From NCBI GenBank assembly GCA_963727775.1, contig CAVSHB010000002.1, forward strand, positions 768,001 through 832,000: DNA of 64,000 nucleotides. The letters are read 5' to 3'. The DNA is from an uncultured Nitrospiraceae bacterium. Its GTDB lineage: Bacteria; Nitrospirota; Thermodesulfovibrionia; Thermodesulfovibrionales; SM23-35. Positions 36,001 through 42,000 of this stretch are shown one piece after another; position 1 is the stretch's first letter, and each line of letters starts with the position of its first letter. A program made the position numbers.

Positions 36001-39000
36001 AAAAGCAAATAAGATTTGCTTATATTTATATGTGCACAATTGGACAGACATAAAGCTTCAATGTGCTGTCATTCCCGCTCATTTTATTATGCACTTCGTG
36101 ATAATTGCATGATTGAAATCATCCGAAACGTTCATCTGATGTCTAATTGACAGCTGTAGTTTGTACTTTGTATAGTATACTCAATCGGCGATGGGGTTCG
36201 CCTCTAACCGTTCCGGACGATCGGAAATGATGACCCCTACTATGTCGGCAAAGAGCTGAGGGCTTAGAGCAGTAACTCTTGGAGGCTTGCAGACACGGTA
36301 GGGGTCTTTTAGTTTATGTCCCCTCCGGTGGTGAGAATAAGGAGGAATGTTAAAGATGGAAAACCAATGGCTTCAGGCTGCGTTATGGATGGGGCTTGCT
36401 CTTGTGGCGACATTGCTCTCTGTGAGGATCGCGATATCGATCGCCTTGCTCGAAATAATGGTCGGCGTGATCGGCGGGAACTTCCTGCCTCTCCAGAGGA
36501 CCGAATGGGTGAATTTCCTTGCCGGGTTCGGTAGCATCTTACTCACTTTCCTCGCAGGGGCGGAGGTTGAACCGGAGATTCTCAGGAAAAAATTCAAAGA
36601 GAGCTTCGGCATAGGCTTTCTGAGTTTTTTGATACCCTTTTTAGGGGCGATGGCGTATGCATATTACATAGGGGGTTGGACTTTCCAGCAGGCGGCGATA
36701 GCCGGTATTTCCCTCTCAACCACGTCAGTTGCCGTAGTATATGCGGTCATGATAGAGACAGGATATAATGAAACAGAACTCGGCAAACTTATCCTTGCTG
36801 CCTGTTTCATCACTGACCTCGGCACAGTATTGGCGCTGGGTATCTTTTTTGCAAATTATGACTGGCATTTAGTGCTTTTTATCGCGGTAACAATAATTAC
36901 TCTCCTCTTACTTCCTAAATTTACTCCCTGGTTCTTTATGAAAGTCGGCAGCCGGATCAGCGAACCGGAAACGAAATTTATCTTCCTGTTGCTTTTCGGC
37001 CTCGGAGGAATTGCTCTGACTGCGAAAAGTGAAGCGGTACTGCCGGCCTATCTGGTGGGGATGGTATTGGCTCCTTTCTTCCTGAAGAACAGGACGCTCA
37101 GCCACAGAATGAGAGTCACTGCTTTTACTATGCTCACGCCTTTTTACTTTCTCAAAGCAGGCTCATTGGTAAAACTTTCGGCGATGTGGAATAGCGCCTT
37201 GCTGATTCTGATTTTTCTCATGGTCAAAATGGCAGCGAAATTTATAGGGGTATGGCCGGCTACAAAAATTTTCAGCTTCGGTAAGAAAGAAGGTATGTAT
37301 ACAACCCTGCTGATGTCGACGGGTCTTACCTTCGGGACGATATCGGCGCTCTTCGGGTATACGAATAAGATCATTACTCAGGAACAATATACAATACTCG
37401 TTACTGCTGTTATACTTTCAGCAGTAGTACCGACAATAATAGCCCAAAGATGGTTTCAACCTGAGATAAAAAAGGAGGGGAATGATGTTTAAGAAAATCT
37501 TAATAGCCAATGACGGCTCTGAAGGAGCAAAAAAGGCACTCAAAATTGCCATTGATCTCGCAAATAAATATAGCGCCGAACTCCACAGCATATCCGTAGA
37601 GGAGGGAGTGCCGCACTATGCAGCTACAATCGGAGAAGTAGAAGAATTCAGAAAAGAGGCGAATGAATTTTTCCAGAAAATCAATGACGAGGCAAAGGAA
37701 GAGGCAAAAATTTCCGGAATAGAACTTTATATAAAGGTTCAGGCAGGACATGAAGTTGAAACTATCGTGAATTATGCGAGGGAAGGGAAATTCGATCTCC
37801 TCGTGATAGGCTTTATGGGGCATTCAAAGATATTCGGAAGAGTCTGGGGGTCAACCTCACAGAATATTACAAAGCTGTCTCCTTGTACCGTTGTTGTGGT
37901 AAAATGATTTAAACGGCGATGGAGTTCGCTCAACCGTCTCGCTTGATCGGGACTGATAACTCCTACCAAAGACTTCTTTGGTAGGAGTTTTTTAGTTTTG
38001 AGATAACAACATGACTCCTGCCGAGAGAAGGTGAAGGGAGGTTAATAATGGTTCTCGACAAATACTCGCATTTCAAAGAAGAACTTGTAGAGTGTATCAA
38101 CTCTATCCTGACAATCGAAGGCATCACCGGCAGCATCTGTGAAGAAATCAGAGAAAAAATCGAAAATAATGTATTTAACCTTGTTGTTCTTGGACAGTTC
38201 AAGAGGGGCAAGACCACCCTCATAAATGCGCTCCTCGGAGCAGAAATATTGCCTACCGCTGTTGTACCTCTAACATCTATTGCAACAATCCTCACATACG
38301 GCGAGACGTTGAATATCAAAGTATATTTCAACGACGGCAGGGTGCCCGAAATTGAACCGGCGAGCCTCCCACAATATGTTACAGAAAAAGGAAATCCAAG
38401 GAACGAAAAGGATGTGCGGGAAGTCATCATTACCTACCCGTCGTCTTATCTGAAAGACGGTGTAAGGCTGATTGACACTCCCGGCGTCGGCTCCATTTAT
38501 GAACATAATACCGATGTTGCCTATCAGTATCTTCCAAAGTCGGATGCAGCCTTATTCCTCATTTCTGTGGACCAGCCGTTGAGCAAGGCTGAGTTGGATT
38601 TCCTTAAGGACGTAAGAGAGTATTCGAACAGGATATTCTTTCTTCTCAGCAAAGCGGACTACTTCTCCGAGCCTGACCTCCGGGAGTCGATGGAATTTTC
38701 AATGGATGTGCTCACAAAGGCGATGGGGACTGAAGTGCGGATCTTCCCGGTTTCTGCAAAACTTGCCCTTGAAGGGAAGGTTTCAGGCGCCGAAGACCTT
38801 GTCAATAAAAGCCGACTTCCACAATTTTCAGAAGTGCTCAACAATTTCCTTATGGAGGAAAAGGGAAAGATACTGATCATATCGATTGCGAACAATCTGC
38901 TCCGGCTGATCTCTCAGGTGAGGTTCGCACTTGAACTTGAAATGAAATCGCTCTTCACACCCCTTGAGGAACTGCAGGAGAAGATAAAGATCTTCGAAAA

Positions 39001-42000
39001 GAAGGAGAAGGATGTCCTGACGGAAAAGGGCGATTTTGACTTGCTGTTGGATGCTGAAGTTAAAAAGATAATCAACAACGTTCTTGAAGAAGACCTCAGG
39101 GTTTTCAGGCAGGAGTTGATTCTTAAAGTATCCGAAATCCTTGAAAGCCGCTACAAAGAGTATTCTGACATGTCTCTGAAGAAGCTTCGGGAGCAGCTTG
39201 AGAAGGAGATTATCACAGAAGTAAAACAGGCGTTTGCATCCTGGCGCATCATCGAAGATGAAAAGCTGGCAAAGACCTTTGAGACGGTCTGCAGGAGGTT
39301 TGTTACAAAGATCGATGAGACGGTGGATTCCCTTCATAAGTTTTCTTCCGAGCTTTTCGCGGTACCCTTTGATGCGGTGAAGGCAGAGGCGCTTTGGTCA
39401 TCGAAGTCCGAGTTTTACTACAGATTCCAGGAACAACCGGTGGGTATTGAGATAGTGACATCGTCGGTGACTTTGTTGCTGCCGAAGTTCATCGGCGAGA
39501 AGATAATCCTAAAGAAGATGAAGGAATACTTGTGTCGGGTTACTGACCTGCACACCGCCAGGGTCGGTTACGACTTTGAAAAGAAGCTGGACAAGGGCAA
39601 ACTCGATTTCAGATGGGAGATGCGCCGCAGGATAGAGGCAACCATCGAAGGGATCAGAACCGCCATAGACAAAGGAATGACTCAAAGATCCGGAGGTGAG
39701 AAGGAGGCGACTGAAAGGAAGAGCCAGGTCTCACATGTTCTTGTCCTGCTTGACGGAATTAAGGAAAAACTGATTCAGATACAGCAAAAGGTTTCTTCTT
39801 AATTCTAAAAAAGAGAAGTTATAGAACGATGGAGACCGTTCTTTTAAGTGTCCTGTTATATCAGGTCTGATGACTTCTACGGATAAATCTTAGAAAGGGT
39901 TTGTTATAAATAAGCTAATCGAGAAAGGGGAAAATCCTATGTCAAAGATCAAGAGTGTAAAAGCAAGGGAGATTTTGGATTCGAGGGGTAATCCTACAGT
40001 TGAAGTGGATGTGATACTCGATAACGGAATATTAGGCCGGGCGGCTATTCCCTCAGGTGCATCAACAGGAAGCAAGGAAGCAGTTGAACTAAGGGATGGG
40101 GATAAGACACGTTATTTAGGGAAGGGTGTTTTGAAAGCTGTAAATAATGTTAACGAAATTATTGCCCCGCACATAGTCGGTAAGGATCCGAGGGAACAAA
40201 AAAGCATAGATTCTTTCATGATCGATCTTGACGGTACAGAAAACAAAGCAAAATTAGGGGCTAATGCGATTTTGGGGGTTTCTCTTGCAGTAGCAAAAGC
40301 AGCAGCTCAGAATGATGGTTTATCTATTTTCAGATATCTTGGCGGTGAAGATGCACGGCGTCTTCCAATCCCATTCTTCAATATCCTAAACGGCGGCAAG
40401 CATGCGGATAACAATGTTGATATACAGGAGTTTATGATTGCTCCAATTGGCGCAAAATCTTTCAAAGAAGCCCTTAGAATGGGGGCTGAAACATACCATA
40501 ATCTGAAAACTGTTTTGAAATCAAAAGGATTAAACACATCTGTCGGAGACGAAGGAGGATTTGCTCCAAACCTTTCATCCAACGAAGATGCTGTAAAGAT
40601 TATCATCAGCGCAATAGAAAAAGCAGGATATAACCCCGGCCAGGATATCTCCATTGTTTTAGACCCCGCTGCAAGTGAGTTTTACCAGGATGGGAAATAT
40701 ATTTTAAAAGCTGACAACAGCAGATTGTCTTCAGAAGAAATGGTTAAATATTACGCAAACTTGATTTCGAAATATCCTATCATCGCCATTGAAGACGGGC
40801 TTGCAGAGGATGATTGGGACGGCTGGCAGGTCATGACTAAAGAATTAGGAGAGAAGATTCAGCTTACCGGTGATGACATTTTTGTCACCAATCCCAGGAT
40901 TTTAGCGCAAGGTATAAAACAAAGGATTGCCAATTCTATTCTTATCAAGCTCAACCAGATCGGAACGCTGACCGAGACTTTAGAAACTGTCGGAATGGCG
41001 AAAAGATCTGGGTATACTTGCGTATTTTCCCATCGTTCGGGAGAAACGGAAGACTCGTTTTTAGCGGATATAACGGTCGCAACAAATGCCGGGCAGCTTA
41101 AGACCGGCGCGCCTGCCAGATCAGAAAGACTGGCGAAGTATAACCAGTTGCTGAGGATCGAAGAGCAATTGGGAAACAAAGCAGTTTTCAGCGGAGATTT
41201 GGAGTGGTAAAAAGCGTCTTAAATCAAACTTAGCCAGAGATAACCAATAAATATGCATAAGATTGATAAAGGGATGCCAATTTTCATGTGCCCAATGAAG
41301 CCTATTTTAACCGCAGGTCTTGCCCCTTCTATCAGTATAAGGTTTCCTATGGACCCTAAAATCGTCAGATTACCGGCAAGGGTGCTGCTCATGGCAAGTA
41401 AAAGCCCTGTTTTTTCTTGATCAATAATCGATGGAATTATATTAAAGCCATTTATTAGACAACACACTATCACATATAGAATAGGTTTTGACAGTATGAT
41501 ATATTTTTGCTACATGTATATAGCTGGTAAAATGGTTTTGATCTGAGTGAAAACTGAAATCCAAAAATCTTACTGATTAAATGGATAGCCAGAAAAACAT
41601 TGCCTATCGCTTCATTGTCATCATGGGGATTGTCAGTATGTTTGGGGACATAACCTATGAAGGCGCTAGAAGTATTACCGGCCCTTATATGGCGGTCCTG
41701 GGGGCGAGTGCGGGCATGGTCGGTCTTATTACGGGTATCGGAGAGTTTGTAGGATATGCGCTGCGTCTTGTTTCGGGGCGGTTGGCTGACAGGGCCGGAG
41801 CGTACTGGCCCCTTACATTCATAGGATACGGTCTAATTTTTTTCATACCATTGCTGGGGTTGACGGGTTACTGGCAGCTTGCAGCGGTTTTTATCATTTT
41901 GGAGCGGATGGGAAAGGCGATTAGGACCCCTGCGAGAGATGCGATACTCTCCCATGCAACAAAGCGGGTGGGCCGGGGCTGGGGATTTGCTTTGCACGAA

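Follow-up and report, generated by a model that had tools for sequence, protein, structure and literature searches.

A dynamin-like GTPase encoded in the genome of an uncultured Nitrospiraceae bacterium (GCA_963727775.1, here G000) stands under its own fluoride riboswitch, and because of this switch the protein is very probably a dedicated fluoride-induced one, as a preliminary description of the DNA had proposed from a first reading. The fuller picture, of a fluoride-inducible dynamin-like protein that cares for the inner membrane, is one that we hold with about as much confidence as doubt. The gene lies within a fluoride island in the window analysed here, a stretch of 64,000 nucleotides from contig CAVSHB010000002.1. 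Three matches to the RF01734 model stand in tandem on the forward strand, as had been described, at 36178-36246 (49.7 bits), 37906-37972 (44.3 bits) and 39816-39886 (26.9 bits). The first two pass the gathering cut-off of 34 bits and the third fails it (genome-wide E 3.3e-5), its orthologous copy in locus L008 scoring 34.4 bits. These are the top three RF01734 scores of the genome, the remaining two matches reaching 20.2 and 16.3 bits.

All genes of the island proper are read from the forward strand. Just 5' of aptamer 1 lies a sigma-70-type promoter-like site (TTGACA-18-TATAGT, 36147-36176, forward), which agrees with the consensus at 11 of 12 positions and is the best of the region, in a scan whose overall site count equals the shuffled mean. 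A terminator-like long hairpin with a U-rich tail (36232-36316, forward; folding z = -3.4 for 36225-36320) takes up the 3' strand of aptamer 1, and is followed by genes for a cation:proton antiporter (Na_H_Exchanger, 381 aa, 36347-37492), present as a single copy in the genome, and a universal stress protein (Usp, 141 aa, 37482-37907). Within the last usp codons, an extended -10-like element (TGnTAAAAT, 37897-37905, forward) was read by eye and is absent from the output of the promoter scan; the same letters also precede the aptamer in L007, L009, L010 and L076, and the element is a possible internal promoter for aptamer 2. This second aptamer forms the leader of the dynamin gene (584 aa, 38048-39802). 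Aptamer 3, with an intact core, precedes a second copy of enolase (423 aa, 39939-41210) that is 61.6% identical to the other enolase on contig C1. The island is flanked by the gene of a TauE/SafE-family exporter on the reverse strand (34935-35912), which recurs beside 11 of 146 other fluoride loci, and by that of an MFS transporter on the forward strand (41581-42762), ahead of which no RF01734 match is found in this window; a homologue of the latter (60%) in genome G059 stands behind an aptamer.

At aptamers 1 and 2, the terminator hairpin and the aptamer share a strand and are mutually exclusive. The terminator noted earlier between aptamer 2 and the dynamin gene is borne out as a T-tailed hairpin with a 14-bp stem (37958-37989; z -7.2; 37958-37995 as the full element, forward), which overlaps the aptamer, pairs with its pseudoknot strand and would constitute the OFF state. 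At aptamer 3, no terminator captures the pseudoknot 3' strand (z 0.11), just a weak hairpin lies downstream and the expression platform is doubtful. Across 42 distinct dynamin leaders, P1 and the pseudoknot are paired in 98.9% of 378 cells, with 41 double changes, against 41-62% in slid controls. The terminator stem is 92.7% paired across the dynamin leaders, also with compensatory changes; these pairing levels were reached by none of 500 shuffles, and a hairpin with a T tail was called automatically in 36 of 60 leaders. The comparison shows a leader with two exclusive predicted folds, the fluoride aptamer or a terminator on the same strand. In the RF01734 riboswitch class, binding of Mg-fluoride prevents termination. 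Aptamer 2 would thus, in all likelihood, bind fluoride and switch the dynamin gene on, Mg-fluoride stabilising the aptamer, blocking the terminator and allowing transcription to proceed, and we regard induction of the dynamin by fluoride as very probable.

The product is supported as a real bacterial dynamin-like protein. It matches PF00350 (Dynamin_N) with 103 bits (E 1.7e-29), and its GTPase motifs are conserved (G1 at 49-56, T76, DTPG at 143-146, K202/D204), with a G4 that reads SKAD rather than NKxD, the first-position N being present in 98% of the family. The predicted structure (pLDDT 89) has long helices from 272 to 583 and can be matched over its full length to IniA (Z 25.6 over 509 residues, rmsd 7.9) and to BDLP1 (Z 21.4 over 525 residues, rmsd 7.8); in this model, and by these alignments, helical neck and trunk bundles stand behind the G domain. 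Segment 456-492 carries a conserved aromatic, mildly hydrophobic stretch (mean 0.28) followed by a basic one, with pLDDT below 50 at 451-464. Across 84 relatives the trunk is at its most hydrophobic in residues ~463-483, and in 74 of them the stretch that comes next has a net charge of +2 or more; a putative lipid-binding trunk tip is placed at about 456-490. Excerpts of two reports describe membrane contact of IniA and DynA via basic or basic-aromatic patches (PMC6715688, PMC12998192).

Several of the closest known systems are dynamins. Mycobacterial IniA (PDB 6j72/6j73) is likewise one chain of ~600 aa with G domain, neck and trunk, and is portrayed in part of PMC6715688 as stress-induced, with a basic lipid-interacting loop; it is, however, 18% identical to the dynamin described here, is induced by cell-wall drugs without a riboswitch, and is accompanied by a homologue, IniC, while the dynamin of G000 is the only one there. 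Of the solved structures, that of Nostoc BDLP1 (PDB 2j68/2j69) matches best in sequence (E 8.9e-24, residues 36-319), although the G000 protein is ~110 aa shorter and its trunk lacks a strongly hydrophobic segment; a fluoride aptamer was found at none of the four dynamin loci of cyanobacteria that were checked. The systems of membrane surveillance and phage defence, Bacillus subtilis DynA and E. coli LeoABC, are also Dynamin_N GTPases, with a possible part in membrane integrity (excerpt of PMC12998192). DynA is two-headed, and against its model NF052648, of 1187 positions, the 584-aa protein scores 70.5 bits for a cut-off of 1600. LeoABC-type defence requires adjacent LeoA and LeoB/C dynamin genes; the island has no partner gene, and its dynamin gives only weak partial LeoA/LeoBC matches. 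In a plasmid search, no record reached 80% coverage of the protein.

The preliminary description had also offered the GTPase as a spare that offsets fluoride poisoning of a housekeeping GTPase, and the island enolase is indeed such a second copy. We reject this role for the dynamin and consider it very improbable: unlike the duplicated enolase, the dynamin is single, as a tblastn search of G000 with it returned itself alone, the second Dynamin_N match of the genome is an Era-type GTPase, and the family is absent from most genomes of the order.

The recurrence of the riboswitch-dynamin pair in varied surroundings, reported at first for one family, extends much further. The dynamin gene directly follows an aptamer in 35 of 59 copies within the order, in 12 of 17 Nitrospirota genomes outside it, and at 50 of 80 loci from metagenomes (35 of these <45% identical), where chance would place one before roughly 0.07% of genes; the sampled genomes are kin, and the counts are therefore not independent events. 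Many copies without a direct aptamer stand within riboswitch-led operons. The orthologue of G006, earlier said to lack an upstream aptamer, lies 1747 nt behind one on the same strand, with the antiporter gene between and crcB-DUF190 upstream. Nor is the link restricted to one lineage, as had been thought, since the dynamin family occurs in 11 of the 13 families of the order and in other classes of the phylum, and further loci encode proteins labelled Armatimonadota or clustering with Desulfobacterales. A fluoride aptamer is found somewhere in the genome of 55 of 58 carriers versus 11 of 23 non-carriers. The neighbours of the gene (CrcB, DUF190, antiporter, Usp, MFS, enolase, HAD-like and hydrogenase-type operons) are usual fluoride cargo.

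The gene is dispensable, as ~70% of the genomes of the order lack it (present in 59 of 201). In a FastTree phylogeny of the loci, the deep branches of which are weak, one well-supported clade of 8 loci is without any aptamer, and the protein is therefore able to serve outside fluoride control; 7 of 8 more distant loci also lack one. Degenerate aptamers ahead of the aptamer-less clade were seen at none of the six of its loci searched with Rfam (E ≤ 1), and at none of all eight with a relaxed two-part pattern, which is insensitive because it missed the 5' halves of aptamers that the eye can make out in L128 and L098. This patchy distribution, the aptamer-less clade and the weak PADLOC matches to LeoA and LeoBC (E 1e-18) would suit a passenger gene that travels in fluoride islands, or one that acts in LeoABC/DynA-like phage defence, the aptamer being incidental. 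Such a reading is quite improbable, given that G000 has no partner dynamin gene and that proteins as little as 33-45% identical retain both the aptamer and the terminator, with compensatory changes, in neighbourhoods that vary.

In its other cargo the island is conventional. According to parts of PMC2864571 and PMC11139923, RF01734 regulons comprise crcB/Fluc, CLC-F, Na+/H+ antiporter, enolase, Usp, pyrophosphatase, HAD and formate hydrogen lyase genes. The island shares with them the aptamer, the terminator-overlap ON logic, an ordinary cargo of antiporter, Usp and second enolase, and the arrangement of several aptamers before members of the usual gene pool. It differs in the dynamin-like GTPase, which is unnamed among the published cargo in those parts of the two papers, and in a genome that has neither Fluc nor a CLC bearing CLC-F signature motifs. 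As stated before, G000 has no CRCB match above cut-off; its three CLC loci all read GKEGP, and no GEVTP.F occurs in six frames (CLC-F signatures being GNNLI/GMGLI and GEVTP; excerpt of PMC11139923).

The absence of crcB had been put forward as the setting of the dynamin, which holds for the family (0 of 21 genomes) and not for the carriers as a whole, of which 40 of 75 have crcB, often adjoining the dynamin gene. Within the order, 25 of 58 genomes with the dynamin have crcB, as do 31 of 80 without it (Fisher p 0.73; the genomes are related and not independent), and the dynamin is thus rejected as a crcB substitute; it would belong to the fluoride regulon in general rather than stand in for an exporter. 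The antiporter family of the island is found in 24 of 58 dynamin carriers versus 24 of 142 non-carriers. crcB occurs in 8 of 40 genomes with that family versus 48 of 98 without it (again kin), and in the speculative reading set out below the riboswitch-controlled antiporter may be an unrecognised fluoride exporter.

The association with the antiporter, together with a transporter gene that very often adjoins the dynamin gene or is co-transcribed with it, could also mean that the fluoride-induced dynamin organises fluoride or ion transporters, clustering or inserting the antiporter, Fluc or MFS protein. We consider this unlikely, as the partner varies (CrcB, antiporter, MFS, hydrogenase-type subunits or none) and the dynamin mostly has its own switch instead of sharing the operon of the transporter. 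Slightly less probable still is the release of vesicles, or the formation of internal ones, that would carry off or lock away fluoride or precipitates of metal fluoride: IniA, which among full-length structural matches is the closest, cuts membranes (excerpt of PMC6715688) and LeoA has been tied to vesicle secretion (excerpt of PMC4159319), but a small ion would be better served by a channel, and crcB is already available to 40 of the 75 carriers.

Membrane repair remains our best guess for the role of the dynamin. Under fluoride the cytoplasm becomes more acidic, the proton-motive force falls and the integrity of the membrane changes (part of PMC11139923). Once induced, the one-chain IniA/BDLP1-type GTPase, with its aromatic, hydrophobic and basic segment at the presumed site of a lipid-binding tip, would coat the anionic inner membrane and use GTP to patch regions that leak or are damaged, or to pinch them off; we consider such remodelling or patching of the membrane about as likely as not. 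Such patching would limit the proton leak that follows HF entry, the antiporter would restore pH, and the second enolase would sustain glycolytic flux. In an alternative that we find improbable, the G domain is itself the fluoride target or sensor, the GDP-metal-fluoride transition state holding a polymer on the membrane as a scaffold or brake, or serving as a metal-fluoride sink. Dynamin-family G domains have been crystallised with GDP-AlF4 (3w6p, 6djq), and a motif peculiar to this family, E113-x-x-N116-P117-x-N119, is invariant; IniA, on the other hand, is monomeric even with GDP-AlF4 (excerpt of PMC6715688), and the 3-4 fluorides bound per 65-kDa protein would be a negligible sink. More speculative than membrane repair, and unlikely, is the idea that fluoride resistance has a third arm, structural in nature, in which the RNA switch and control of conformation by GDP-metal-fluoride would together confine coat or vesicles to fluoride conditions, in cells without Fluc or CLC-F and beside an antiporter that possibly exports fluoride.

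The literature searched contains no paper that links a fluoride riboswitch with a dynamin, in line with the novelty first claimed, the scope of this search ending short of the downstream-gene lists of the riboswitch papers. The fluoride regulon, until now viewed as exporters, ion homeostasis and backup enzymes, gains a large GTPase that probably acts on membranes, and a fluoride switch before a dynamin gene, in this genome and in most of the relatives studied, suggests that bacteria respond to fluoride in part by tending their membranes, a side of the response that has been overlooked. Bacterial dynamins mostly have no known physiological trigger, and a subfamily wired to one ion supplies a clean inducer that permits a direct in vivo experiment on dynamin function. 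These findings bear on microbes of groundwater and wastewater and on engineered organofluorine degraders, which are limited by fluoride toxicity, and the lack of Fluc and CLC-F in the family raises the possibility of a missing exporter.

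Three fluoride (crcB-motif, RF01734) riboswitches stand in tandem on the forward strand of the window, as the preliminary description had held: aptamer 1 at 36178-36246 (49.7 bits in the Rfam scan), aptamer 2 at 37906-37972 (44.3 bits) and aptamer 3 at 39816-39886 (26.9 bits, below the cut-off of 34). They are the top three fluoride-aptamer matches of the 3.43-Mb genome and are followed, respectively, by a cation:proton antiporter with a Usp protein, a 584-aa Dynamin_N protein and an enolase, the whole island being flanked by a TauE gene and an MFS gene. A sigma-70 site (11/12 consensus) precedes aptamer 1. 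Hairpins with U runs overlap aptamers 1 and 2 and take their pseudoknot strands (z -3.4 and -7.2, respectively), which is, as far as sequence can tell, how an ON switch is laid out. The second aptamer begins at the usp stop codon, and because an extended -10-like element, recognised by eye and found with the same letters at four other loci, lies within the last usp codons, this aptamer may be transcribed from a promoter of its own or work as an internal attenuator. P1 and the pseudoknot are intact in aptamer 3, whose orthologue in a relative (L008) reaches 34.4 bits; in the window, however, no hairpin takes its 3' strand. Between enolase and the MFS gene lies an 84-aa hydrophobic ORF (41219-41473, minus strand) with a weak DUF1646 match (E 0.06), which we take to resemble a C-terminal remnant of an ArsB/NhaD-type permease.

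The pairing of aptamer and dynamin gene recurs widely. The window's protein is matched at E <=1e-40 in 59/201 genomes of the order Thermodesulfovibrionales (the window's own included), from 11/13 families, and 55 of the 58 other carriers have an RF01734 match. Counted over 59 copies of the gene (G004 contributes two and every other genome one; three second fragments are excluded), a same-strand aptamer lies <=350 nt upstream in 35, one of these being a partial match below the cut-off, <=2.5 kb away in 12 and ~7.9 kb away in two; five copies have none on their contig and five lack their 5' part. Three of the five copies without an aptamer were inspected, and the contig edge was found 0.3 to 3 kb upstream. 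In G077, one of the 7.9-kb cases, a riboswitch-led hydrogenase-type operon continues into the dynamin gene. Hydrogenase-4/formate-hydrogenlyase-like operons continue into, or are found close to, the dynamin gene at L140 (G077), L149 (G276) and L139 (G107), with the aptamer at their head in G077 and G276. G006 had been put forward as a counter-example without an upstream aptamer, but its dynamin gene stands 1747 nt behind one, in the order crcB-DUF190, aptamer, antiporter, dynamin gene. A sample of the phylum Nitrospirota held the family in 25/251 genomes; among the 17 carriers outside the order, 12 carry the aptamer directly upstream (at 51-107 nt; in one case below the cut-off), two have one <=2.5 kb away and three have none on the contig. 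Named relatives are Nitrospirota bins, with a direct aptamer in 10 of the 12 loci scanned (13 fetched).

A full-library search returned 2154 representatives at E <=1e-30, and the best 80 of 599 confirmed metagenome stretches were fetched with an alignment of 56 distant representatives. Within these best 80 of 599, 50 loci have a direct aptamer (<=400 nt of the match start, at the Rfam cut-off), nine have one <=2.5 kb away, five elsewhere in the locus and 13 none, and three have too little upstream DNA to judge. The proteins of 35 of the 50 are <45% identical to that of the window, and 23/32 clusters at 60% identity contain a direct case. Two loci, L128 and L098, carry sub-threshold aptamers and terminators seen by eye. 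The variant aptamers of L110, L114, L123 and L098 read GGUGG instead of GAUGG (G for a conserved A); in some of them the hairpins are rich in G-C and lack a U run. The few source labels include Armatimonadota (L067 protein), Desulfobacterales (in the L122 cluster) and, for one representative, Betaproteobacteria, while atlas clusters offer leads to Thermodesulfobacteriota and Acidobacteriota. The link, initially regarded as lineage-restricted, reaches well outside the family SM23-35.

No aptamer was found in a clade of eight loci (L074, L086, L088, L089, L091, L092, L093, L102; support 100, 42-48% identity), which is nested among aptamer-bearing lineages, so that the absence looks like a single loss. 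Three of its loci adjoin, back to back, a gene for a lytic transglycosylase (SLT_2), which hints at a role in the envelope. As a control, seven of eight more distant dynamin loci in named plasmid records lack a fluoride aptamer within 2.5 kb; in the eighth, Lichenicola cladoniae, a second, DUF6062-carrying dynamin type and a riboswitch-crcB-usp unit stand back to back, the aptamer being directed to crcB. The loci of this type are L117:5930-8530, L126:5716-8355 and L153:2387-4012; in two loci it stands in tandem behind the 590-aa type.

In 43 dynamin leaders (42 distinct), picked for aptamer presence, 98.9% of the cells of P1 and the pseudoknot are paired and 41 double changes occur; for the terminator, absent from the Rfam model, the values are 92.7% and 37. 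Neither percentage was matched in any of 500 shuffles, and sliding the partners brought pairing to 41-62%. The chance level is roughly 0.07% per gene (from 99 matches in 58 genomes), and any aptamer occurs in 11/23 non-carrier genomes under laxer scan filters than for the 58 carriers; because the genomes are kin, such counts are not counts of independent events. The dynamin-like GTPase is very probably induced by fluoride. That it is a mere passenger or serves phage defence appears remote. Its neighbours in 46 other ORF-scanned loci are genes of the kinds commonly met in fluoride loci, and none of them is a constant partner. A 156-aa HAD-like protein recurs as the first called ORF 3' of the dynamin gene (L134:5684-6160, L016:7837-8307, L062:5589-6059, L095:6130-6600), as does, downstream, a 250-300-aa AAA_16 ATPase (L061, L064, L148).

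Among solved structures, Nostoc BDLP1 (E 8.9e-24) and IniA come closest in sequence. The AlphaFold2 model (pLDDT 89, pTM 0.76), a G domain with long helical bundles, aligns with IniA over 509 residues (Z 25.6, rmsd 7.9), with BDLP1 over 525 (Z 21.4, rmsd 7.8) and with truncated mitofusins over ~330 (Z 27-28). G1, T76, DTPG, K202/D204 and the family motif TExGNPxN are conserved, and the window's protein has S201 where 98% of the family have N. It has no transmembrane helix; residues ~463-483, the most hydrophobic trunk window across 84 relatives, have about three aromatic residues before them and, in 74/84, a basic stretch after them, and would fit a putative lipid-binding tip of the kind described for IniA or DynA (PMC6715688, PMC12998192). 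Direct sensing of GDP-metal-fluoride by the GTPase seems quite improbable, as IniA is monomeric with GDP-AlF4 (PMC6715688). Fluoride, which comes in as HF, lowers both the cytoplasmic pH and the proton-motive force, and is reported to alter membrane integrity (PMC11139923). Given these effects, a regulon rich in genes for ions and pH, and the action of the characterised relatives on membrane integrity, we favour, with moderate confidence, a role in membrane upkeep, which the GTPase would serve under fluoride; vesicle release is an improbable alternative.

A spare GTPase had also been proposed, and is very hard to sustain: tblastn found no other copy of the dynamin gene in the genome, and its other Dynamin_N match, which includes a KH domain, is a GTPase of the Era type. 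For the island enolase, unlike the dynamin, contig C1 offers a candidate housekeeping copy of 61.6% identity. The lineage was correctly described as lacking crcB, which is absent from this genome and from 21/21 genomes tested of the family SM23-35, but this does not hold as a reason for the GTPase: crcB is present in 40/75 carriers and, within the order, in 25/58 carriers vs 31/80 non-carriers, no difference, which rules out the dynamin as a crcB substitute. CLC-F signatures are absent from all three CLC loci of the genome (C3:559158-560150, C3:272378-273370, C1:312393-313384), so that, with no crcB, it has no recognised fluoride exporter. Two of these CLC genes encode 447 aa with near-equal scores; the third was matched in two pieces and is possibly frameshifted. 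The obvious candidate exporter is the riboswitch-led antiporter (36347-37492), crcB occurring in 8/40 order genomes with this antiporter family vs 48/98 without, and either it or the MFS protein may be an unrecognised fluoride exporter. That the GTPase organises such transporters is unlikely; upkeep of the membrane itself is preferred.

The statement that no dynamin had been tied to fluoride before stood in the searchable literature, where no paper joins 'fluoride riboswitch' and 'dynamin'; most subscription papers and part of the supplementary tables, where a mention is possible, lay outside the search. Additional file 3 of Weinberg 2010 may reportedly list downstream genes. The words 'dynamin' and 'COG0699' are absent from the searched text and eight supplementary files of that paper (PMC2864571), Additional files 1, 3 and 7 being outside the search. 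The fluoride riboswitch and the bacterial dynamin are each already known kinds; what is new is their coupling in a subfamily of dynamins that its fluoride switch defines.
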